Shown in pieces: positions 2,412 to 25,594 of a DNA stretch of 25,892 bases. The stretch comes from a virus (lineage: Duplodnaviria; Caudoviricetes). The position numbers and the translations under genes were made by a program. The notes below the pieces were generated by a model. The model did no database searches. It was not told where the DNA came from and worked only from the letters and a program-made list of their open reading frames with translations. The stretch covers positions 1 through 25,892 of IMG/VR virus record IMGVR_UViG_3300037419_001020; one strand, given 5' to 3'. Numbering within the stretch: the stretch's first letter is position 1; each line of letters opens with the position of its first letter.

Positions 2412-2645
2412 GTGATGATTCTATTCTTTAGTGGTGTATTCGCTATGGTTGGCTTATCTCTTATCTTAGGTGCAGGGTATATCTTAGGACAAAAGAGTAC
2501 ACCAAAGCCAAACAGGGAACAAACACCAGACGAAGTACACGAATTAGAAGAACAACGAAGGAAACAAAAGGTAATTGCAAAAGATTTCAATAATCTAATG
2601 GCATATGATGAAACAATCGCTTATGCACGTAAGAAGGTGAACTAA
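2412..2645 (+). CDS. Small protein with N-terminal transmembrane helix, unknown function
   Basis: Hydrophobic first ~26 aa then charged helical tail; fills the terL-portal gap exactly, with TAATG stop/start coupling to the portal. Confidence 0.75.
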   Translation: MMILFFSGVFAMVGLSLILGAGYILGQKSTPKPNREQTPDEVHELEEQRRKQKVIAKDFNNLMAYDETIAYARKKVN

Positions 2646-4501
2646 TGGCAGATAAAACAAAAGCCTGGAAACTCTATGAGAGTGGAAAGAAATACAACAA
2701 TCAATTAAAACCGAACTACTATGATATGGTTGATGCAAACTGGGCTTTCTTTAATGGCGATCAATGGCGTAATGTTGATGCTGAAAATATGCCCAAGCCT
2801 GTATTTAATATCATACGCAGGGTTATTACATTCTTAGTAGCTTCATTAACTGCTAGTAAAGCGAAGATTCACTTTGAACCATTAACAGGTACAGAGGGAA
2901 TAGATCAATTCGATGATAGTCAACTAGCTACTGCACAAGTTAATAACTTGCTAGAGAAGTTCAAAATGGATATTAAGATTAAAGATGTGTTGTTCGATGC
3001 AGCCAATACAGGCGATGGAGCAGCACATTTTTATTTTGATTTAAATAAGAAGCCATATGGAAATGTGGTGAACCTGTCAAATGGTCAACAAGTAAGTGAT
3101 ATTAATGGTGAGATTTGTATGGAATTAGTTGATGGTACGAACGTTTACTTTGGTAATGCAAATAGCGTTGATGTTCAATCACAACCATATATCATTATTA
3201 GTGGTCGTGATACGGTTAAGAACCTTCAAAAAGAGAAGTTGTATTGGTCTAAGATGAAACAAGTTGAATCTGAAGTACAAGAGGATAACACAACGACTGA
3301 TGCAGCTGGTGATAGTGGAAAGATTGAAGTAGATGCAGATGGTTATGGTAAGGCACAATGGATCATCATGTATGAAAAGAAAACTGTTATGGTAGATGGT
3401 CAAGAAGTTGAGCGTGTATTCGCTTCTAAGAGTACTGAAAAGACTTATATCTATGAAGAACAACAAACAGGCATGAGTAAATACCCTGTAGCATGGATGA
3501 ACTGGGAACGTAGAAAGAATTCGTATCACGGCATTAGTCAATGTGGAGCGATTCTACCGAACCAAATCTTCATTAATCGTATGTTTGCGATGGTTATGTA
3601 TCATCTAATGAATACAGCATTCCCTAAAGCAGTGTACAACGCTGATTACCTACCTGAATGGAACAACGAGATTGGTACAGCTGTTCCAATTTACGGTACA
3701 GGCATAGATCAAGATATTCGTAAAGTCGCAGGTTACTTACAACCTGGCAATATGAGTGGTCAAATTGTACAAGTTCTCGAATTGGCGATAGAGAAGACAA
3801 AGGAAATGTTAGGGATTAACGATACTTCATTAGGTAACGTTAGACCAGATAATACGTCTGCTATTATCGCAGTACAAAAGAGTGCTGCTATTCCTTTGGA
3901 AAACCCTAAAGCGAATTTATACCAATGGATTGAAGATATTGGTGAGATATTACTTGATATGATGGGCACTTATTACGGTAGTAGACCATTACCAATGGAT
4001 GTAAAAGTACCAAAGATTGATCCTAACACTGGTGAAGAACAAGTAAATATTGATGGCTCACCTGTTGAAGAAACACAAAAGCAGATCATCATGTTTGACT
4101 TCAGTAAATTGAAAGATACGTGGTTAAATGTTCGTGCAGATGTGGGTGAATCGTCTTATTGGTCAGAGATTGCAGCACAACAAACTCTTACGAATATGTT
4201 AGGTCAAGGCTATTTAGATGTTGTTCAGTTCTTAAAACGTGTACCTGATGAGATGATTCCTCAGAAACAGGAGTTAATCCAGGAACTAGAGTTGAAACAA
4301 CAACAAATGGAAATGCAACAACAACAACAAATGCAGATGCAACAAGAACAACAGATACAGCAACAACAAGTTAATGCCGATCAACAAGCTCAACAAGAGC
4401 AAGTGCAAGCAGAACAAAGACAAGAAGAAATTAACTTGAAGCATAGAGAGTTAGATATTAAAGAGAAGCAAGCAAGTAAACAAGATAGTAAGAAGAAATA
4501 A
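2645..4501 (+). CDS. Portal protein (P22-like size, Gln-rich C-terminal coiled coil)
   Basis: Position after terL, 618 aa, FFNGDQW and KPVFNII N-terminal motifs, GINDTSLG..NTSAII motif, long Q-rich helical C-terminus. Confidence 0.88.
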   Translation: MADKTKAWKLYESGKKYNNQLKPNYYDMVDANWAFFNGDQWRNVDAENMPKPVFNIIRRVITFLVASLTASKAKIHFEPLTGTEGIDQFDDSQLATAQVNNLLEKFKMDIKIKDVLFDAANTGDGAAHFYFDLNKKPYGNVVNLSNGQQVSDINGEICMELVDGTNVYFGNANSVDVQSQPYIIISGRDTVKNLQKEKLYWSKMKQVESEVQEDNTTTDAAGDSGKIEVDADGYGKAQWIIMYEKKTVMVDGQEVERVFASKSTEKTYIYEEQQTGMSKYPVAWMNWERRKNSYHGISQCGAILPNQIFINRMFAMVMYHLMNTAFPKAVYNADYLPEWNNEIGTAVPIYGTGIDQDIRKVAGYLQPGNMSGQIVQVLELAIEKTKEMLGINDTSLGNVRPDNTSAIIAVQKSAAIPLENPKANLYQWIEDIGEILLDMMGTYYGSRPLPMDVKVPKIDPNTGEEQVNIDGSPVEETQKQIIMFDFSKLKDTWLNVRADVGESSYWSEIAAQQTLTNMLGQGYLDVVQFLKRVPDEMIPQKQELIQELELKQQQMEMQQQQQMQMQQEQQIQQQQVNADQQAQQEQVQAEQRQEEINLKHRELDIKEKQASKQDSKKK

Positions 4502-5439: not shown

Positions 5440-6543
5440 ATGGCAGTAAATTTAGCGAGTTCTTATGCAAAAAAGGTTGACGAAAGATTTTATTTAACAT
5501 CACTAACAGAGCAAAGTGTTCACCAGGACTTCTCATGGGAAGGTGTAAACGCAATTAATGTATACTCTATTGCTACAGCAGCAATGGCGAACTACACACG
5601 CTCCGGTTCAGCTCGTTATGGTACAGCAGCAGAGTTAGACGACACAGTAGCGAACTACTTACTAACTCGTGACCGTTCATTCACATTCACAATTGATCGT
5701 GGAAATCACATTGATTCACAAATGGTTCGTGAGTCTGGTAAAGCGTTAGCTCGCCAATTAAACGAAGTAGTAACACCAGAGATTGATATTTACCGTTTAA
5801 CGAAGTATGCAGCAACAGCAACTGCAAACGCAGGGGATTCAGCAGTAACAGTTATTACTGCATCTAACGCTTATGCTTCATTATTAGATGGTGGTGTTTA
5901 CCTAGACAACAACAAAGTACCTCGTACTGGTCGTGTTGCTTATGTTCGCCCATCATTCTACAAATTTATTAAACTAGATCCTTCATTCATGAAGTCATCT
6001 GAAATTGCACAACAAAAATTAATCAACGGTCAAGTTGGTGAAGTTGATGGAGTAGCGATTGTAATGGTTCCAGATTCTTACTTACCTGCTAATCGTGAAT
6101 TTATCTTAGTTCACAAATCAGCAATGGTAGCACCTAAGAAATTACAAGACTACAAAACACATGACAATCCTCCAGGTAAACAAGTAGCATAACCAACGCT
6201 ATGATGCCTGTTTATACAGTAATGTATATTAAGAATTGGGTGAATTCGGTGAAGGCTAAGTCGAAAGATATGCTAATACCGAGCCAAGCTAACTAGGGAT
6301 AGTTAGAAGGTGTAACGACTAACTGCATACTACTAGAACAGTAATGAAGCAGACACGAGCGCCCAACATCCTTACAGGATGAAGATATAGTCTGAACTTA
6401 TAGGAAACTATGAGAAGTAGAGGATAAAGAGCCTTTACGATAACAAAATGATCAATGGTTGGTTAGTTGAAGGTCGTATCTACTATGATGCGTTCGTATT
6501 AGATTCTCGTAAAAAAGCAGTATACGCACACAAAAACGCTTAA
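5440..6543 (+). CDS. Major capsid protein, spliced: join(5440..6177,6451..6543), 276 aa
   Basis: MAVNLASSYAKKVDERF start, DRSFTFTID, EVVTPEIDIYR and GQVGEVDG motifs of P22-coat/N4-gp56-like capsids. Removing 6178-6450 restores the in-frame C-terminus HDNPPG|INGWLVEGRIYYDAFVLDSRKKAVYAHKNA*. Confidence 0.92.
6178..6450 (+). ncRNA. Group I self-splicing intron (subgroup IA-like), no homing endonuclease ORF
   Basis: Exon ends in U (6177), intron ends in G (6450). P1 CAGGT/GCCTG with U-G wobble; P2 TATACA-GTAA-TGTATA; P3 TTGGGTG (6236-42)/CGCCCAA (6360-66); P4 TTCGGT/ACCGAG; P6a CTAACTA-GGGA-TAGTTAG; P7 GACTA (6317-21)/TAGTC (6388-92) with S element AAGATATAGTCT; P8 CATCCT-TAC-AGGATG; P9 CTTATAG-GAAA-CTATGAG; P10 TGAT (6202-05)/ATCA (6451-54). 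Confidence 0.95.
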
Positions 6544-6718: not shown

Positions 6719-6727
6719 TTAGTCAAG

Positions 6728-6763
6728 AAGGGGGAGTGGTAGCAATACTATTCCCCCTTTTTT
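6728..6763 (+). terminator. Rho-independent terminator
   Basis: GGGGGAGTGGTA-GCAA-TACTATTCCCCC followed by T6. Confidence 0.9.
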
Positions 6764-6782
6764 ATTGTATAGGGGGTGCGAT

Positions 6783-8441
6783 ATGCCACAGGTATTAGGC
6801 ACAATAACAGAAGATAGTGGGAGTGTTACAACGAATTATACGGATACAGTCACGAATACTACACAAACGTTTACGTTTTCAGATAAACAAGATGGTATGA
6901 CCTTTATCAGTAAAGGGAATGCAGTTGTTACATTAACAGTGAATGGAAAAACAAACAACATCCCACCTAACGGATCAATCCGAATCAATGATGTGTTCAC
7001 TTCATTTGATGTTGTTCGTATTCAGTCAGGTTCTCATTCATTTGAGATTAATTCATTTAAGTTAAAGAATGATGTTCGTGATGTAGAAGGTTTTGCTGAA
7101 CAATTAAAACAAACTAACCTAACACCAGTTTTAACAAGAGATTTAACTTTAAATGATAGAAGTAATGTAAACCAAACAGGAACTACTAGAATTAGAGTGT
7201 ATTCACAGTTTCAAAGCCAAGATTTAAGAATTATGTATTCTAATTATTACAATGGTAATGTTTCGAAATTTACACCTAACACTAATAATATAAGTGTTAA
7301 AGCAGCTATTGAAATTAACGGTGTGGTTATCCCAATGTACTTCAATGGGAAAAGAACTGTAGTTATCGAAGGTGGAGCGAATGTTTTAAGCGATCCAATC
7401 GGTTGTATTATTAACCCTGGAGATGCTGTATACATTAGGACATTCTTTGATGCTGGAGTAGGTGGATATGTCCCGAAGTCTGCTCAACAATTTGGTATCA
7501 CATTAGGTAACAATGATGGGGTTACGTATGGTTCTGATTTAGTGGATTCTGGAACTATTACAAATACCAATTATGATTACGCTTATATACCAACTGCTAT
7601 TTTTGGAACAGCAGAAGTTGCTGAATCGTTTTTGTTGGTTGGTGACAGTATCATGCAAGGGATTGATGATAAACCAATGCAATCAATAGGTTTTGCAGCA
7701 AGAGCCTTATATAACAAAAAAATACCTTATACCAAAATTGCTATGTCTGGTGAGAGTACAGGTGGATTTTTGGATAGTTTATATCTACGTTCCATCTTTA
7801 CAAACAATCACAAAAGCGTTCTGATTAATTATGGGCGGAATGATGTTAACGGTAATGTTCCGATAGCAACGATTAAAGCGAATTTAATTAAAATATGGAC
7901 TTATTATAAGAAAAAAGGTTTAAAGGTTTTTCAATGTACGACACTTCCAAGAACTTCATCAACAGATTTTTGGATAACACTTGAAAACCAAACGGTTCAT
8001 GCTAATGACACAATAAAAGTGGCATTAAACCAATGGCTTCTTGATACAACTTCTAATGGTGCGAAAGCTCAATCAAATGGTGTGTTAGATGGTGTGTACG
8101 ATATTGCAAAAGTAGTGGAAGTTAATGGTAAGTGGAAGGCTGCAACAAAAATCTATTCAGGAACTATCCAATCTGCAACTACTAATACCTTAACTGACTC
8201 GGCAATACCATTCCCACAACAAGATTTAGATAAAGATGCAGTTGTTGTTATTACAGGTGGTAAAGGAGTAGGGCAAACTGCGCAGGTTAGTTCAAATTGG
8301 CCAGCTACGCAAATTACAGTAAAAACAAATTGGGCAACTATACCAGATAATACATCTACCTACGATTTGTATCGAGTTGCAACGAACGATGGAATTCATC
8401 CAAGCCCATCACAACACGCAGTAATATCCACTGTAATTTAG
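6783..8441 (+). CDS. SGNH/GDSL hydrolase-domain protein, probably virion-associated esterase
   Basis: Block I LLVGDSI, block III NYGRND, block V DGIHPS; beta-rich N-terminal region. Start ATG 6783 after AGGGGG. Confidence 0.85.
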   Translation: MPQVLGTITEDSGSVTTNYTDTVTNTTQTFTFSDKQDGMTFISKGNAVVTLTVNGKTNNIPPNGSIRINDVFTSFDVVRIQSGSHSFEINSFKLKNDVRDVEGFAEQLKQTNLTPVLTRDLTLNDRSNVNQTGTTRIRVYSQFQSQDLRIMYSNYYNGNVSKFTPNTNNISVKAAIEINGVVIPMYFNGKRTVVIEGGANVLSDPIGCIINPGDAVYIRTFFDAGVGGYVPKSAQQFGITLGNNDGVTYGSDLVDSGTITNTNYDYAYIPTAIFGTAEVAESFLLVGDSIMQGIDDKPMQSIGFAARALYNKKIPYTKIAMSGESTGGFLDSLYLRSIFTNNHKSVLINYGRNDVNGNVPIATIKANLIKIWTYYKKKGLKVFQCTTLPRTSSTDFWITLENQTVHANDTIKVALNQWLLDTTSNGAKAQSNGVLDGVYDIAKVVEVNGKWKAATKIYSGTIQSATTNTLTDSAIPFPQQDLDKDAVVVITGGKGVGQTAQVSSNWPATQITVKTNWATIPDNTSTYDLYRVATNDGIHPSPSQHAVISTVI

Positions 8442-8518: not shown

Positions 8519-9076
8519 ATGAATCTAAAAAAAATCATTGATGAAATCAACAAAGATATAGATGATGATCTAGACAATGACATCTTAACAGGATGGATTA
8601 ACCGAGCATTAGACGATTTAACACCTTATGCACGATATAAAAAGAAAACAACAATCAATGTCTTGACTGGTGTAACTGATTATACACTGCCATCTGATTT
8701 ATTAGATGTTGAAATAGTAGGCGAGAACATCCCTAGATTGCCATTGAACGACTTTAATCATGTTGGGTATAAAGTGTTAGGGAACGCTCTTACACTTCAA
8801 CCAGAGCCAACAGATGACTATACAATGGATGTAATCTACAATGCAACGTTACCATACTTAGTGAATAATGAAGATGTACCTGCAATCCCTTCTAACTTTC
8901 ATAATTTACTCATTTTATATGTGATCGCTAAGTTTAAATATCAAGATGAAGAATTAGGTTTCCAATCTAACGCTATGCAAGAGTACGAGCGAAAGAAACA
9001 AGACTTCATCCGTTATATCAACAGACAGAATCAACCACTTAAAATAAGAGATGTATACAATATGAGGTGGTGTTAA
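8519..9076 (+). CDS. Head-to-tail adaptor (short-tail phage type)
   Basis: 185 aa; WINRAL, GVTDYTLPSD, L.LQPEP and D.PAIP..FH.LL pattern typical of podoviral adaptors; RBS AAGGAGGG; precedes nozzle. Confidence 0.75.
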   Translation: MNLKKIIDEINKDIDDDLDNDILTGWINRALDDLTPYARYKKKTTINVLTGVTDYTLPSDLLDVEIVGENIPRLPLNDFNHVGYKVLGNALTLQPEPTDDYTMDVIYNATLPYLVNNEDVPAIPSNFHNLLILYVIAKFKYQDEELGFQSNAMQEYERKKQDFIRYINRQNQPLKIRDVYNMRWC

Positions 9077-9303
9077 TGGCTGAAAAACTATATGGACAAT
9101 TTAAAGACTTTTCAGCAGGGTTAAATGCAAAGGATGGAGCTTCATTGGCACTAGAACAAGAGTTAATTGAAGTAGAAAATGCAATATTAGGTAGAGGATT
9201 CGTACAGAAAAGATGTGGTTACGAACCTTTTTCAGTTGCTCCAACACAAAGTACATTGTTTTTATGGAATCAGTTTGGTAGTAAGAATTGGAGTGATGTG
9301 TAA
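9076..9303 (+). CDS. N-terminal fragment of tail nozzle protein with Trp-containing tail
   Basis: DFSAGLN...L...E....EN......G..QKR.GY resembles the N-terminus of podoviral nozzle/stabilisation proteins. Start ATG 9076 (RBS GAGGTG; TAATG coupling). Confidence 0.65.
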   Translation: MAEKLYGQFKDFSAGLNAKDGASLALEQELIEVENAILGRGFVQKRCGYEPFSVAPTQSTLFLWNQFGSKNWSDV

Positions 9304-10925
9304 TGGCGAATACACCAAATTATAGTTTATATAAACCGAATCGACTAGATAATGTACCAGTTGATACAACTTTATCTGATAACTTCGATAAAATTGATTA
9401 TCAAATCAAATTAAGATCAGATGAAATTACGAATTTAGATGAGAAGATTGATAATTTAATCATCCAATCTAATTTACCTCTTGTTATCCAGGAAGAAGAA
9501 AAGTTTACGATTTCAGTTGAACATACTTATAATTCTTCAACACCTCTTGAATATTGGATAACAACAATTACACCTAAAGATAGTGAAGCTTTAAAAACGT
9601 TACTTAAAAAAGATTTCGCTTACTCGACTAGCGAGTTTACAGACACGGCTAAAGAAGCACCATTAGATCATGCGGACCGTGTAAAAGGGTTATTCTCTAT
9701 TAACGCAAGTGGTTGGGATGCAGGAGCAACCGAAAAGATAGATGGCATTCAAATTAAAGATGGTGTTGTTTATCAAAATATCGCAAACTTCCCAAATTGG
9801 TACACATTAGGTGTAAATCGTGATGGTTTAATGAATGTATACCCTAACACAATGACAGGATTAGACCTTTTATCTCAAGGTATTGTGAATACATGGTCAT
9901 TCAGTATACCAATTATTATGAATGGTATAGAAGTTGATACAAGTATTTATAGTTTGTATTCTTCTTACAATCAGTTATACGCTAGGCAAATTATCGGACA
10001 AGTGAATGGAACGAATGAAATTATTGTCTTAACAGTAGATAAGTCTAGTCGTTCACAAGGTATGACATTACCACAAGCAGCAGCCATTTTATTAAGTAAA
10101 GGTTGTCGAGTTGCTTATAACCTTGATGGTGGTGGTTCTGCTCAAACGATTTATCAAGGAACTACACTAAACACACCTTCAGATGGAACATTCAGACCAA
10201 CACCAGATTTATTGTATATCTCAAAGTATGAAAACTATGATTTATACTTAGATGTTCAAAAAGAAGTTTCTGATGCGACAGGTGGGTTCGAAACACTACG
10301 AGATAAAATTAATCTATCCCAACGTTTTAAAATGACATTAGATGATGGGACAGTTGAGTACACAAGTAATACTCCGTTAGACTATAACACGATAAAAGGC
10401 ACGAAGTATTTTAGACATTATGCAGATGTTGCTAATGCAGCCAATGATTTAAACGCTCCTTTTAGTGGTACTGTTGATGTTTACGGAATAAATATACAAA
10501 GCTCATATACTTCAGCTTTACAAGTTGTTTGGGATCGACAATCTAAACAAATGGCATTTCGTTTTAATAATTTAGGTACATGGGGAAGTTGGGCTACTTT
10601 AAGAGATAAACCAGTTTACACTCCTGCTACAACTCTATTAAACTCATGGGTTAATCTAGGTGGTTCTGACCCTGTTTTACAATATTGTTTAAAAGATGGA
10701 ATTGTCTATATTAAAGGGGTTGTAAAGGGTGGTGCTGCAAATACAGTTATTACAAACTTACCTGTAGGAATGAGACCACTTACACGTTATGTAAAAACGA
10801 CTGTAGTTAACAATGGCACTGTAGCACCAGGAAGAATCTTCGTAGATCCTAACGGTGATTTAAAGTCATTAGATGCAGCAAGTGGATACTTATATATCGA
10901 AGCATCTTATCCTGCTGAACAATAG
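9303..10925 (+). CDS. Tail fibre/spike with phosphodiester glycosidase (NAGPA-like) domain
   Basis: Fibre N-terminus TPNYSLYKP...NFDKID; INASGW, ARQIIGQ, SQGMTL, AYNLDGGGS, NTPSDG..RP motifs; knob-like WGSW segment; C-terminal LLNSWVN..GIVYIKG..LPVGMRP head domain. Confidence 0.82.
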   Translation: MANTPNYSLYKPNRLDNVPVDTTLSDNFDKIDYQIKLRSDEITNLDEKIDNLIIQSNLPLVIQEEEKFTISVEHTYNSSTPLEYWITTITPKDSEALKTLLKKDFAYSTSEFTDTAKEAPLDHADRVKGLFSINASGWDAGATEKIDGIQIKDGVVYQNIANFPNWYTLGVNRDGLMNVYPNTMTGLDLLSQGIVNTWSFSIPIIMNGIEVDTSIYSLYSSYNQLYARQIIGQVNGTNEIIVLTVDKSSRSQGMTLPQAAAILLSKGCRVAYNLDGGGSAQTIYQGTTLNTPSDGTFRPTPDLLYISKYENYDLYLDVQKEVSDATGGFETLRDKINLSQRFKMTLDDGTVEYTSNTPLDYNTIKGTKYFRHYADVANAANDLNAPFSGTVDVYGINIQSSYTSALQVVWDRQSKQMAFRFNNLGTWGSWATLRDKPVYTPATTLLNSWVNLGGSDPVLQYCLKDGIVYIKGVVKGGAANTVITNLPVGMRPLTRYVKTTVVNNGTVAPGRIFVDPNGDLKSLDAASGYLYIEASYPAEQ

Positions 10926-10936
10926 GAGGTGGGAAT

Positions 10937-12325
10937 GTGACAACTTGGAACAATGCGTTTAATGTTCGCAATCCGATTTACCAGTTATACGATTACAAAC
11001 GGAATAACGGAACAATCGAAAATTTATCAGTTAGTTCCCTCCGGTTATATAAAGATGTGTCAGGTGTTCAAACTGTCATTCCAGGATTACCAGGAACACT
11101 CACATCGAACGATACGAAGTTTATTACTTACAAGGACAGAAATATCAATGATGCAGTTTTAATTGCAGATGGTGGTAATTTAAAGGTTTATAACGGTACT
11201 TCATTAAGTGTTGTTACACCACATACACCAACAACAGATGAAACAACGAATCCTGGACTAAATGACTTAGGAAATTTAACAAACTTTCGTACAATGGCTA
11301 TCAAAAAAGATCGTATATTTGTTGCAGCACACCCTACAGTGAAAAATAGGGTGCATTTTTCGTATTTCGATCCATATTTAGGGTATGCAGTATACGATTA
11401 TTTCCCTGCTATTTACTTCTTTGATGTGGCCACAGAAGATAATGATGAAATTGTGGAATTAAAAGTGTTTCGTAACCAGTTAATCATCTTCTGTAAAAAA
11501 AGTGTATGGGCATTAAAAGGTGATGGGGCATCATTAGGTGATTTAGAGTTAGTGAAACTGAATGTACCAAAAGGGTGTATCTCTCGTAATTCAGTCCAGG
11601 AAGTAGGAAATAACTTATTTTTCTTAGGTGATGACCATGTTTATAGCTTATTCGCAACAGAACAGGAATATATATCTGCTCAAATTATGAGTGATAAGAT
11701 ATTACCAGTTTTAAAGTCTGTAGGATTAACAGATAAAGCAAAAGCGACTTCTATCTTTTATGATAACAAATACTATCTAAGCTTCCCTAGTGGCTTAACA
11801 CTTGTTTACGATGTCACTTTAGAATCTTGGACTAGATTCACTAATATTAAAGCAAACTCCTTTCTTGTACGAGATAACTTATTGTACTTCTCGAGCAATG
11901 ATGGGGTTATTTATCGTTTCAATGAAAATGTATTCTCTGATAATGGTGATGTCATTACATTTAAAATGAAAACGAAAATATTCGACTTTGATTATCCTGT
12001 CCACAGAAAGAAATTCCGTAAATCATGGGTAATCACCAAACAATGGGCAAACTTCGCATCTAATTTTGATTTAAATATCATTGTGGACCAATTTGAAATG
12101 AAGAACATTTCAGGGTTAACAGGAGAAGTTAGAAGTGGTGGGTCTGGTATTTGGGATGTTAGTACATGGGATGATGCGAATTGGGATTTCTCTGAAACCG
12201 TACAAAATGAATTAAAAATAGGTAGAAAAGGTAAGGATATTCAATTTCAAATCAGTAATGAAAATATTAACGAGCCTTTAACGATTTATGGGTTTGTGAT
12301 GGAATATCAAATTAAGAAACCGTAA
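10937..12325 (+). CDS. Tail nozzle/stabilisation protein, main (C-terminal) part; beta-propeller-like
   Basis: DRIFVA, NQLIIFCKKSVW, KGCISRNSV, NNLFFLG, DNKYYL repeats; KTKIFDF...RKKFR; WDVSTWDDANWD near C-terminus. RBS GGAGG 10925-10929, GTG start. Confidence 0.8.
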   Translation: MTTWNNAFNVRNPIYQLYDYKRNNGTIENLSVSSLRLYKDVSGVQTVIPGLPGTLTSNDTKFITYKDRNINDAVLIADGGNLKVYNGTSLSVVTPHTPTTDETTNPGLNDLGNLTNFRTMAIKKDRIFVAAHPTVKNRVHFSYFDPYLGYAVYDYFPAIYFFDVATEDNDEIVELKVFRNQLIIFCKKSVWALKGDGASLGDLELVKLNVPKGCISRNSVQEVGNNLFFLGDDHVYSLFATEQEYISAQIMSDKILPVLKSVGLTDKAKATSIFYDNKYYLSFPSGLTLVYDVTLESWTRFTNIKANSFLVRDNLLYFSSNDGVIYRFNENVFSDNGDVITFKMKTKIFDFDYPVHRKKFRKSWVITKQWANFASNFDLNIIVDQFEMKNISGLTGEVRSGGSGIWDVSTWDDANWDFSETVQNELKIGRKGKDIQFQISNENINEPLTIYGFVMEYQIKKP

Positions 12326-20064: not shown

Positions 20065-20099
20065 AAAATCCCTCCTTTAATTAGGAGGGTTCTTTTTTT
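20065..20099. terminator. Bidirectional terminator between convergent genes
   Basis: AAAAT-CCCTCCT-TTAATT-AGGAGGG-TTCTTTTTT. Confidence 0.85.
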
Positions 20100-20577
20100 A
20101 TGTGTGTAATTGTCTAATCAACTCATTACCATCTATTAAGGTAATATTCGTCTTATTCGCATACTCTAACGCATCTTTCGTGAATCCAGATGAAGTAATG
20201 AAATATCCTCGTTTCACACGATCTGCAAGCATAGCTCCATTTAATTTCTGTATAGCCGGCCGGCCAACATTCCCTTTCCAATGTTTCACTTCTACATAAA
20301 TCTTTTCTTTTCCATCATAAGCAATAATATCTTTTCCCCCATCTTTACTTGCTTTTGTCACCTGGGTTTTAAATTCTCTTGTTATTTGCAAAAATGCAGC
20401 TACATAAAATTCAAAATCCCTTGGAGTCATATTGTAAAAACGTTGTCTTTCTTTAAATACTTTTAATTGATTCCATTCTAATTTTCTTTCTTTCACTAAA
20501 TACTTATTATTTATCTTAATAACGATTATTCCGAATAAAAGGAAACCGATTATTGTATATGCTGCTAACATCTCCAT
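20098..20577 (-). CDS. Mrr-type (PD-(D/E)XK) restriction-endonuclease-domain protein with N-terminal TM helix
   Basis: DFEFYVA, SKDGGKDII, YVEVKHW, VGRPAIQKL, FITSSGFT, LIDGNEL motifs of Mrr_cat; hydrophobic residues 4-22. Confidence 0.88.
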   Translation of the reverse strand: MEMLAAYTIIGFLLFGIIVIKINNKYLVKERKLEWNQLKVFKERQRFYNMTPRDFEFYVAAFLQITREFKTQVTKASKDGGKDIIAYDGKEKIYVEVKHWKGNVGRPAIQKLNGAMLADRVKRGYFITSSGFTKDALEYANKTNITLIDGNELIRQLHT

Positions 20578-21916: not shown

Positions 21917-23200
21917 GTGATTATTATTTTATTTACTTCTATTGTTTCCTCATCTATTGTTGTTGGTCTGGGTGCTTCAGTTGGGTTGATAAAACCTAAA
22001 TCAAATGATAAGAAAACGATTAAGCGATTATTCGAAATAGCAAAGCTTTGTGTAAAAGAAAAAGACATCATTAAATATCCAACATTCAAAAAGTCTGTAC
22101 CAAATGTGAACCATATATCTTATTTCTATAGACTACCTTTAGGGATTCCATCTAAATTAATTATTGATTTCCAAGAGATTTTATCAGAAGGATTAAATAA
22201 ACCTGTAGTGATTGACTTTACGAATTATCAACTTGAAGTAAAAGTATTTCACAATGAATTGATTAAAGATTATAAATGGAACAAAAATGTATTAAAACCT
22301 AATTCTTATGAGGTGTTTATTGGTAAGTCATTAACTGAAGATATTTATCATGATTTTGATTCAAGTCCTCACATCGTTATTGGTGGTGGTACTGGATATG
22401 GGAAAACAGTACTACTCAAATTAATCTTCACTGAATTAATTTTACAAAATCCAGATGATATTGAGTTTTACATTATTGATTTGAAAGAACAATTAGAATT
22501 TTTTAGATACAAAAACCTTAAACAAGTAAAAGATATTGCAGGTAATCCTGGTGAAGTATTTGAATTATTAACTGGATTAGTTACAGATATGTTTAAAACG
22601 ATTGATAAATTGAAAACAAATGGCTTTGAAACAAACATTAAAGATGTAAGTAGAAAAAGAAAATTTATTATTGTCGATGAAGCAGCAGAACTCGCACCTC
22701 ATGGAGAGCCAAAAATGAAAAGGTTATTATTTGAGTGTCAATTTATGTTAAGTGAAATAGCAAGGTTAGGTCGTGCAGTTGGATATAGATTAATTTTCGC
22801 CACTCAATACCCAACTAGCGACACATTACCAAGACAAATCAAACAAAACGCTGACTGTCGAATCGGTTTAAGATTACCAACTTATACAGGTAGCGAAGTT
22901 GTAATTGATGAAAAAGGATTAGAAAAGTTGCCTTATAAATTACCTGGTAGAGCGATCATGAAAACAGATAAGAAAACAGAACTACAGATACCAAACATAA
23001 AAGACAGTACCGTTTGGGAGGTTTTAAAGGGTTATGAAGAAGAAAAACGGAGAGAGAATAGAACAAATACTACAAAGTCTAAAAACACTGAAATTCGCAA
23101 CGAGAAGGCAGTTACAAGGGATTCACAGTCTAGGGGGGATAAGAAACGCTCAAAGACTACTGAAAAGCCTAGTGGAGATGGAATTATTATCAGTGACTAA
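21917..23200 (+). CDS. FtsK/SpoIIIE-family ATPase with N-terminal TM helix
   Basis: PHIVIGGGTGYGKT Walker A, IIDLK, IIVDEAAEL Walker B, ARLGRAVG..LIFATQYP, LPGRAI. Start codon uncertain. Confidence 0.93.
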   Translation: MIIILFTSIVSSSIVVGLGASVGLIKPKSNDKKTIKRLFEIAKLCVKEKDIIKYPTFKKSVPNVNHISYFYRLPLGIPSKLIIDFQEILSEGLNKPVVIDFTNYQLEVKVFHNELIKDYKWNKNVLKPNSYEVFIGKSLTEDIYHDFDSSPHIVIGGGTGYGKTVLLKLIFTELILQNPDDIEFYIIDLKEQLEFFRYKNLKQVKDIAGNPGEVFELLTGLVTDMFKTIDKLKTNGFETNIKDVSRKRKFIIVDEAAELAPHGEPKMKRLLFECQFMLSEIARLGRAVGYRLIFATQYPTSDTLPRQIKQNADCRIGLRLPTYTGSEVVIDEKGLEKLPYKLPGRAIMKTDKKTELQIPNIKDSTVWEVLKGYEEEKRRENRTNTTKSKNTEIRNEKAVTRDSQSRGDKKRSKTTEKPSGDGIIISD

Positions 23201-23636
23201 ATGGGGGAATGAACACGTTTATTATTTATCTAAAAATGGTGCTTCTTATGTTGGTACTAATCCAATGAAGAAAAGTATTCAAATAGATCATCACTTATTA
23301 AGAAATGAAGCGTGGATGATGAGTGGACTTCCAAAATGGGATATAGAAAAACCAATTATTTTTTCAAAAGATGGAGAAAAGAAACAGATTATACCAGATG
23401 CAAGATATAAAACAGATACGCTTAATTGTATTGAAATTGATCGTAAGCAGAGCATGGTTCGAAATAGAAAGAAAATGGAGTTATACGGAAAATTAAATGA
23501 GTTATTTCAAATTAAAAACAATAAAAAAATTATCCTTAAAATCTTTACTACATTGAATTCAAGGAAAATCCTATTTGAGAACTTAGCAGGGGAACAAGGT
23601 TTAGTATGTGAAGTTTATGTAATTGAAGATGTATAG
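23034..23636 (+). CDS. Replication-relaxation family protein (wHTH plus PD-(D/E)XK-like domain)
   Basis: LKFATRRQLQ..H, YYLSKNG, DHHLLRNE, IIPDA, CIEIDR motifs; adjacent to FtsK-like gene. Confidence 0.82.
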   Translation: MKKKNGERIEQILQSLKTLKFATRRQLQGIHSLGGIRNAQRLLKSLVEMELLSVTKWGNEHVYYLSKNGASYVGTNPMKKSIQIDHHLLRNEAWMMSGLPKWDIEKPIIFSKDGEKKQIIPDARYKTDTLNCIEIDRKQSMVRNRKKMELYGKLNELFQIKNNKKIILKIFTTLNSRKILFENLAGEQGLVCEVYVIEDV

Positions 23637-24168: not shown

Positions 24169-25560
24169 TCAAATAAACTTGATGTCCTTAACTTCGTAAC
24201 TATATTTATATTGAACTCCATGTCTTTCAACAATAAAAGATCCTATTATCATACTAACTAATGTTTTCTTCTCGTATTCTGTTAAACTTGACCAGTTCTC
24301 TTTAATGTTTAATAATAGTTCTTGTATATCTTTTTTTGAATGTGATTGAGATGGAACTATGTTTTGTAGTTTCTGCTGAATCACTTTTTCTTTTTCATTT
24401 TCCTCTTTCATTAACTCGGTGTATTCTTCATCATTCATCATATCGTTTGCCCATGCGTATGACCATTTTTTCCTACGTTTCGCAATTGTTTTTAATTCTT
24501 GTTCTAAATCCCCTGTTTCATCTTCTTGTTCTTCTATTGAAGTGTCAACCTCATCTAAACCTACTTCTGCTTCTATTTTAGTTAATTCTTTTAAGAAAGC
24601 TTCTTCTAATACATCAATCGGAATATTAACATTACAAACCTTTATACTTCTTCCTTTACATCTGTAACTTTTGTATATTTTACCTCTTGTAGTTGTTTTA
24701 GAACCAATTAACGGTCTACCACAGCTACAAGTAGCAATTCCAGAAAAAACATAATCACTAGCTGCTGCTCTTGGGTGCTTTAATGATCTTATTTTCATGT
24801 GTGTTTGTACTTGTTCAAATATTTCTTCACTAACAATAGGTGGGACTGAATCCTCTACTTCAAAGTAGTTAGATGTATTCCTTCCCCAACGTAACGAACC
24901 TTTATAAAGTGGGTTTTTTAAGATTTGATATATCTGTACATCTGACCACTTTGCACCAGGAGTACCAATTAAATCATTTGCTATTTTATAAGTGCTTTGA
25001 CCTTCTATATATCGCATGAAAATCCTTTTAACTATTTTCGCTTCTTCAGGAATGATCGACAATTCACCATTTTCTAAGGAATAGCCAAAAGGCTTCACAT
25101 GTGCAGCGTACTTACCTTGCCTTACCTTTTCCTCTAAACCGACTCTAACACGTTCCCCTATGTTTTCCCTTTCCCACTGTGCTAACGCAGCTACAATGGT
25201 TATAAAAAGCCTTCCCATAGCTGTTGTTGTATCATAGACTTCTGTTGCAGATTTAAACTTACAATCATGTTTATCAAAATGCTCTAACAGTTTATATAGG
25301 TCTAATACAGATCGGGTCAACCTGTCCAATTTATAAACAAGCACACAATCAATCAAACCCATTTTAATATGTTCGTTCATTCGTTGTAATTCTGGTCTGT
25401 CCATATTTTTAGCAGAAATACCTTCATCTATATAAAAACCTATCACTTCCCAATCCTGGGAATCACAATAAGCTTGTAGTCGCTTCTTTTGTGCAGAAAT
25501 CGAATAACCTTCCTGGACTTGTTCTTCAGTTGAAACACGCACATATATTGCAGTTCTCAT
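24169..25560 (-). CDS. Large serine recombinase (phage integrase)
   Basis: AIYVRVST catalytic Ser, DRPELQRM, VYKLDRLTR, AQWERENIGER, PFGY recombinase domain, CSCG...YRC...C zinc ribbon, coiled coil. Start ATG 25560 (RBS AAGGTG). Confidence 0.96.
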   Translation of the reverse strand: MRTAIYVRVSTEEQVQEGYSISAQKKRLQAYCDSQDWEVIGFYIDEGISAKNMDRPELQRMNEHIKMGLIDCVLVYKLDRLTRSVLDLYKLLEHFDKHDCKFKSATEVYDTTTAMGRLFITIVAALAQWERENIGERVRVGLEEKVRQGKYAAHVKPFGYSLENGELSIIPEEAKIVKRIFMRYIEGQSTYKIANDLIGTPGAKWSDVQIYQILKNPLYKGSLRWGRNTSNYFEVEDSVPPIVSEEIFEQVQTHMKIRSLKHPRAAASDYVFSGIATCSCGRPLIGSKTTTRGKIYKSYRCKGRSIKVCNVNIPIDVLEEAFLKELTKIEAEVGLDEVDTSIEEQEDETGDLEQELKTIAKRRKKWSYAWANDMMNDEEYTELMKEENEKEKVIQQKLQNIVPSQSHSKKDIQELLLNIKENWSSLTEYEKKTLVSMIIGSFIVERHGVQYKYSYEVKDIKFI

Positions 25561-25594
25561 AATAATCACCTTATCATTTTTTTATACAGGTAAT

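Follow-up and report, generated by a model that had tools for sequence, protein, structure and literature searches.

Why does the major capsid gene of this phage appear to end early, with its expected C-terminus encoded further downstream? In the window, that is, the whole stretch of 25,892 nt of viral DNA that was analysed, the capsid ORF (5440-6192, plus strand) gives an unspliced product of 250 residues that ends in PPG followed by KQVA and, by ORF translation, an in-frame stop codon at 6190-6192. The initial annotation attributed this to a group I intron without an ORF, inserted in the capsid gene, and our analysis places such an intron at exactly 6178-6450 (273 nt, plus strand, phase 0, terminal G at 6450), with the stop codon 13 nt inside it. 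By each feature examined, namely the covariance model, the P1 and P10 pairings, the core helices and the restoration of the reading frame, the element is a group I intron.

The capsid gene and its two exons

Exon 1 comprises codons 1-246 (5440-6177, plus strand), its last base being the splice-site U, and aligns with positions 3-261 of the PHROG 422 (major head protein) profile (E 1e-49). Exon 2 comprises codons 247-276 and the stop codon (6451-6543, plus strand) and aligns with positions 266-293 of the same 297-position profile. The joined 276-residue product is identical to that of an intronless homologue (P0125, 276 aa, present on three contigs) at 246/246 residues of exon 1 and 30/30 residues of exon 2, and P0125 itself matches PHROG 422 over positions 3-293 (E 1.5e-61). 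Whether capsids of this kind naturally end at PPGKQVA was checked against the best homologues, 116/120 of which have 275-279 aa and extend beyond codon G246.

In an alignment of 50 homologues, G246, the residue at the insertion site, is invariant, as are G249, L251, E253, G254, R255, Y258, D259 and F261 of exon 2. The AlphaFold model of P0001 (mean pLDDT 79) places the site in a loop joining strands 233-242 and 249-258, with exon 2 supplying strands 249-258 and 270-274, and a structure search with this model returned phage capsids as top matches, the first being the Che8 capsid (8e16; E 8e-13, TM 0.63). The profile match across both exons and the capsid fold identify the gene product as a phage major capsid protein (PHROG 422, N4-gp56 by name). 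Since invariant positions and strands lie in exon 2, the unspliced 250-residue protein would be unlikely to build a shell. The reading in which the substitute tail suffices was rejected on the same alignment invariants and model strands.

Automatic annotation had been predicted to report a truncated capsid, and it does so: the protein collection holds the window's own 250-aa product and six other proteins that stop at the G246 codon. A PHROG scan found no second capsid gene in the window, which is possibly not the whole phage. A terminator-like hairpin (6725-6762, plus strand), identified by consensus match, lies 3' of the 51-aa gene following the capsid gene, and promoter-like sites around the capsid gene show no excess (6, against 7.9 expected by chance).

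The gene set of the window includes a terminase, a P22-like portal, an SU10-type adaptor, lysis genes, an HTH repressor and a large serine recombinase (24169-25569, minus strand; PF00239, PF07508, PF13408; PHROG 95 integrase). The phage is probably temperate, as first proposed and as the recombinase and repressor indicate, and probably short-tailed. The closest named carriers of the capsid belong to Neobacillus, Metabacillus and Bacillus, which suggests a host from this group.

Several neighbouring genes have features of their own. The head-closure gene (PHROG 578) looks split within 9067-12325 into a 78-aa ORF (9067-9303) and a 462-aa ORF (10937-12325), separated by a 540-aa gene with an NAGPA domain and matches to tail proteins; no Rfam element was found at this split. 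A short PHROG 578 piece with a comparable gene start behind it also occurs in L001, L007, L044, L045 and L047, and the pieces are joined in L051 (one ORF of ~497 aa) and apparently contiguous in L046. After the capsid operon lies a 558-aa GDSL esterase-like gene (6765-8441), of which just the first 111 residues are common to the near-identical phages L001 and L003, suggesting a swapped module. Within 21917-23636, the genes for an FtsK/SpoIIIE-like ATPase and a replication-relaxation (PF13814) protein share ~170 nt, and a Mrr-like nuclease gene occupies 20098-20577 on the minus strand.

Boundaries and structure of the intron

The Rfam family RF00028 matches positions 6176-6414 with 92.8 bits (E 6e-23), above its gathering cut-off of 50 bits, and no other Rfam element, aptamers included, turns up in the window at E values to 1. 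A boundary scan near both ends gave three registers, each of 273 nt, that yield the homologue peptide, and only register 6177/6450 has both a U before the intron and a G at its end. The empty site is present exactly in four viral contigs (L001-L004). An assembly error was considered and rejected, the intron being found with zero differences in the independent viral contig L005 and in contigs from five of eight DNA runs.

The longest stop-free stretch of the intron in six frames is 43 codons, so that it holds no nuclease gene, in agreement with the initial annotation; without an endonuclease ORF it is not mobile by homing on its own. The HNH, GIY-YIG and LAGLIDADG families were not found among 30 scanned window proteins, nor was a direct trace of a lost ORF found in the intron.

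The fold originally drawn for the intron (P1-P4, P6-P10, the U-G wobble, the terminal G, GNRA loops and an IA-like insert) was recovered throughout, with 16/16 tested helices fully paired and P5/P5a added to the set. All elements lie on the plus strand. P1 (6173-6210) pairs exon positions 6173-6177 with the internal guide at 6206-6210 over 5 bp including the U-G wobble, with a P1a hairpin at 6184-6202, and P10 pairs guide positions 6202-6205 with exon 2 (6451-6454) over 4 bp. The ribozyme core (6236-6393), supported by RF00028, the pairing test and covariation, contains P3 (6236-6242/6360-6366), P4-P5 (6245-6283), P6-P6a (6283-6311), P7 (6317-6321/6388-6392) with the G6317-C6392 pair of the guanosine site, a P7.1/P7.1a insert (6323-6352) of two stacked 4-bp stems, and P8 (6367-6381); P5 is short and closed by a G-U pair. 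The 3' domain (6394-6450), 52/57 identical to that of a same-site intron in contig L197, comprises P9 (6397-6414) with a GAAA loop, P9.1 (6417-6438) and a half-broken P9.0 (6395-6396/6448-6449). GNRA loops occur at 6219-6222, 6263-6266, 6296-6299 and 6404-6407.

The folding z-score is -4.25, and none of 200 shuffles was equally stable. Across seven related ORF-less phage introns, 93% of the cells for 50 named pairs are paired and 32/50 pairs show two-sided change, P3, P4, P7, P8 and P9 being among the covarying helices, in a set that was chosen by similarity and scored on a structure taken from the window's intron, which favours that intron. Shuffles reached 73% (0/500 attaining the observed value) and slid structures 31-42%.

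A P9.0 pairing beside the terminal G is a common auxiliary element of group I introns. It consists of 2 bp in nine of ten introns compared, in four letter combinations among these nine, and of a single pair in the window's intron, where A6396 faces A6448. This mismatch could weaken the choice of the 3' splice site; with P10 intact, the effect is expected to be small. Class IA is marked by an extra helix, P7.1, that separates P7 from the 3' strand of P3, and by its P7.1 insert the intron is of this class. P7.1/P7.2 are named as class features in PMC3984707.

Related introns, possible core exchange and co-occurring alleles

A contig whose capsid is 58% identical over exon 1 (L197) carries an 800-nt intron (2516-3315) at the same codon. 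Its first 13 nt are those of the window's intron, the exon base and guide base of its P1 are altered together relative to the window, and a 174-aa NUMOD4-HNH ORF, above Pfam cut-offs, sits in the segment that joins P7 to the 3' strand of P3. In L007, which has 93-95% DNA identity over exon 1, the G246 site is free of an intron and two other sites are occupied: a 238-nt ORF-less group I-like intron follows G61 (654-891), and a 1,181-nt intron inside V252 (1464-2644), 17 nt from the G246 site, bears a 289-aa HNH-like ORF in its P5 loop, below the Pfam cut-off. Rfam missed both L007 introns and the L197 intron, and such introns are thus undercounted.

Additional sites were sought in proteins of the family. 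Among 135 motif-reaching proteins (of 141), 13 end early, seven after G246 (the window's own included), four at V252, one after G249 and one after R255, a sample partly selected for shortness that gives no frequency; the protein ending after R255 may be a frameshift. A contig of run X12 differs from 6270-6450 by four letters and three gaps, and its loose end appears to continue, at codon 3, into the N-terminal part of the capsid, where a near copy of the intron core and 3' end likely sits in a related capsid gene; the codon-3 pattern occurred in 0 viral contigs, the site being based on this single run contig. Beyond G246, the intron sites of the capsid family are G61 and V252, for which DNA was seen, and, likely, G249 and codon 3. 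All of these positions, G246 included, show little or no variation among the aligned homologues, and insertion of group I introns at conserved positions is described in PMC2504315.

A wider same-site pattern search of viral contigs returned just the two known ones, and among the 23 candidates from a search aimed at truncated proteins there was no further same-site case. Among whole genomes, the capsid matched in 11/401 of one order and 9/269 of one family, with internal stops in none; two profile scans, from which the capsid motif is estimated to occur in roughly 900 viral and 1,400 metagenome stretches, took the best 80 loci, are biased to uninterrupted genes and are unusable for estimating how often the gene is split. 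Query coverage is 80% or more in all 107 matches to isolate phages, and the 60 matches listed were each a single piece. Related introns are also found in DnaB, DnaE and tape-measure genes. As a separate observation, the tape-measure genes of L230, L231, L232, L234, L235 and L236 are annotated piecewise around unannotated group I introns.

The similarity between the window's intron and its same-site counterpart is uneven. Besides the 3' domain, P4-P5 is 39/41 identical to L197. P7, by comparison, reads GACUA/UAGUC in the window and GCAUA/UAUGC in the L197 and L007 introns, and P6 differs too; for P6-P7.1 the comparison with L197 is invalid, its ORF being placed there. Positions 6284-6353 (P6-P7.1) and 6354-6393 are 59/70 and 33/40 identical, respectively, to an intron of L240, which lies at ~730-950 on the minus strand in a DnaB gene, a helicase identified by eye. 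A same-site intron of equal length in run X16 is diverged over 6283-6376. To judge from these alignments, the intron of the window resembles a patchwork in which a same-site periphery surrounds a different catalytic core, recombination being the simplest account. The 5' strand of P3 likewise goes with the foreign core, so that this account would require either at least two exchanges or compensatory change afterwards. Two introns with a common periphery and unlike cores are described for TMP-IVS3 (PMC2504315).

Intron-bearing and intronless alleles circulate together. The intron-plus allele was found with zero differences in runs X1, X2, X3, X4 and X7, a near-identical intronless allele in X1, X2, X4, X7 and X11 (five of eight DNA runs each), and both together in X1, X2, X4 and X7 (four of eight), counts that come from contigs of 8 of 19 DNA runs, X1-X11 being soil or rhizosphere samples of one year and maybe one campaign. 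Loose ends of the G61 intron appear in X1 and X2. The nearest intronless alleles have GGG or GGA at codon G246 and hence no splice-site U; in the wider family, GGT occurs in 44/126 distinct intronless contexts. The exon tract after V252 in L007 differs at 8-9/76 bases from the window, L001 and L004, compared with 0-1 between L001/L004 and the window, a divergence that fits co-conversion in homing. No co-conversion tract was seen around the window's own intron, and none of three split contigs carries both the G246 and the V252 intron.

Probable splicing, persistence and comparison with known systems

The account that we hold with high confidence, from the sequence comparisons above, is that the endonuclease-less intron self-splices from the late mRNA to give the 276-residue capsid and is a near-neutral selfish passenger, a confidence that rests chiefly on splicing, neutrality being assumed, less sure and overlapping with a protective role considered below. 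Free guanosine in P7 would attack the U-G site in P1, a chemistry that is established (PMC3984707), and exon 1 would then attack past the terminal G, aligned by P10. Ribosomes would halt at the stop codon 13 nt inside the intron, leaving the core free to fold, and an early in-frame stop is given as general in phage group I introns (PMC2504315). An HNH-carrying ancestor may have homed into the conserved motif, a history for which the HNH-bearing intron that L197 has at this codon counts; the nuclease gene may then have been lost or never regained, or the core replaced via recombination with another phage intron. The intron would now spread along with its phage, or when a cut made by a nuclease acting in trans is repaired, and it would persist through splicing that renders it almost harmless. 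Phage introns are perhaps non-neutral, splicing being coupled to translation (PMC3984707).

The best-ranked rival on the question of why the intron persists is compatible with splicing: the intron would be kept as a shield of the capsid gene against homing nucleases of co-infecting relatives, breaking up the sequence that the same-site HNH, and possibly the V252 intron HNH, would recognise. An allele that holds an intron resists that intron's own nuclease (PMC3984707), intron nucleases reportedly act in phage competition (PMC11620839), and two different HNH-bearing introns, those of L197 and L007, aim at one 18-nt stretch. The V252 flank of L007 is diverged as after recent homing, the nearest intronless alleles carry GGG or GGA rather than GGT at the site, and the double-intron allele is absent among the split contigs. 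The HNH targets are, however, putative, three split contigs are too few for mutual exclusion, the distant L197 phage was perhaps never in the same host cell, and synonymous changes would be a cheaper route to equal protection. We regard this role as unlikely. A broader version, to which we give a similarly tentative standing, would make the 276-codon capsid gene a battleground with at least five intron sites, three of them in 18 bases, segregating within single soil phage populations, the ORF-less intron being a recombinant, with the guide and 3' domain of the same-site kind around a foreign core, and being kept as immunity to HNH nucleases of competing alleles.

The initial annotation had further speculated that capsid output might be tied to host GTP, and a regulatory device coupling it to GTP or growth state would fit the possibility that a weak P9.0 renders splicing rate-limiting. 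Splicing of T4 introns is reportedly correlated with host growth state, via translation (Sandegren and Sjoberg 2007, by title). Yet guanine nucleotides in cells are usually well above the affinity of group I ribozymes for their cofactor, co-occurring intronless alleles encode the identical protein, and the presence of related introns at several codons of this gene, as well as in genes for DnaB, DnaE and tape-measure proteins, speaks for target-site opportunism. Nor did the Rfam search detect an aptamer or other nearby element, unlike the riboswitch-controlled c-di-GMP type of C. difficile. Exogenous guanosine is required for group I splicing (PMC3984707), and on balance such a device is improbable; the suggestion is not upheld. 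A defective intron, with the capsid gene of this allele dead or dependent on a helper, appears very improbable: the P9.0 mismatch and the short P5 with its G-U closing pair would fit, but no core helix is disrupted, nor is the G-binding pair, the identical allele recurs in another viral contig and five of eight runs, and the window, perhaps an incomplete phage, shows no other capsid gene. Hardly credible, finally, is that no splicing is needed, the 250-aa product being the capsid or exon 2 being translated separately from an ATG at 6448-6450 and complementing it. This ATG is in frame with exon 2, and databases list truncated products under the name of capsid protein; however, the ATG lacks a Shine-Dalgarno match (-2.1 kcal/mol, compared with -7.7 and -8.6 at neighbouring starts), is replaced by TTG in L197 and is absent in 7/9 other introns compared, and the four read-through residues are unlike the 30 lost ones, which hold the invariants and two strands.

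With self-splicing of a selfish passenger as the preferred account, the locus bears on annotation, where capsid genes of the PHROG 422-type family are called short or piecewise, and on intron evolution. Phages that are close to one another or occur together offer one site in its empty state and in states with and without a nuclease, and neighbouring sites as well, so that the homing cycle and the swapping of cores can be tested. The 273-nt intron is itself a compact natural ribozyme. Existing understanding of group I intron function is unchanged by these findings.

A capsid gene had initially been taken for an unusual intron host. This view has to be given up: group I introns in capsid genes are already known from LittleE, Tuc2009 and crAss-like phages, and the window's case is of this established sort. 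For the PHROG 422-type capsid family, no paper on introns was found in the openly licensed PMC and bioRxiv literature. The intron of the Tuc2009 major head gene (NC_002703; cited in PMC3706429 and PMC2504315) likewise splits a capsid gene of a phage of low-GC Gram-positive bacteria, its record linking two ORFs after excision. Tuc2009 was nevertheless rejected as a same-site case, its capsid belonging to PHROG 544 rather than 422 with no significant pairwise match, its insertion site lying near codon 54 and its intron containing a 310-aa HNH ORF.

In the temperate mycobacteriophage LittleE, splicing of the capsid intron was established by RT-PCR and N-terminal sequencing (PMC3706429). As in the window, the capsid gene of a temperate phage is interrupted and intronless relatives exist; in contrast, the host is high-GC, and the intron is ~820 nt long with a nuclease ORF and is classed there as 'most likely group I'. 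In the crAss-like Delta and Zeta phages, too, the major capsid gene contains group I introns, several per gene, but these phages are large, have Bacteroidetes hosts, and their introns were recognised via nuclease domains (PMC7886860). In size and lack of an ORF, the window's intron resembles the 265-nt BAKA tail intron (PMC3706429). The introns of prophages of the Bacillus cereus group, of classes IA1 and IA2, reside in tape-measure, terminase and tail-tube genes, and the accessible text of PMC2504315 names no capsid gene among their hosts, in contrast to the PHROG 422 capsid gene interrupted here. These introns are otherwise alike in occupying conserved sites of virion genes, in many cases without a nuclease and with an early in-frame stop (PMC2504315), and tape-measure introns of this type match that of the window at ~70%.
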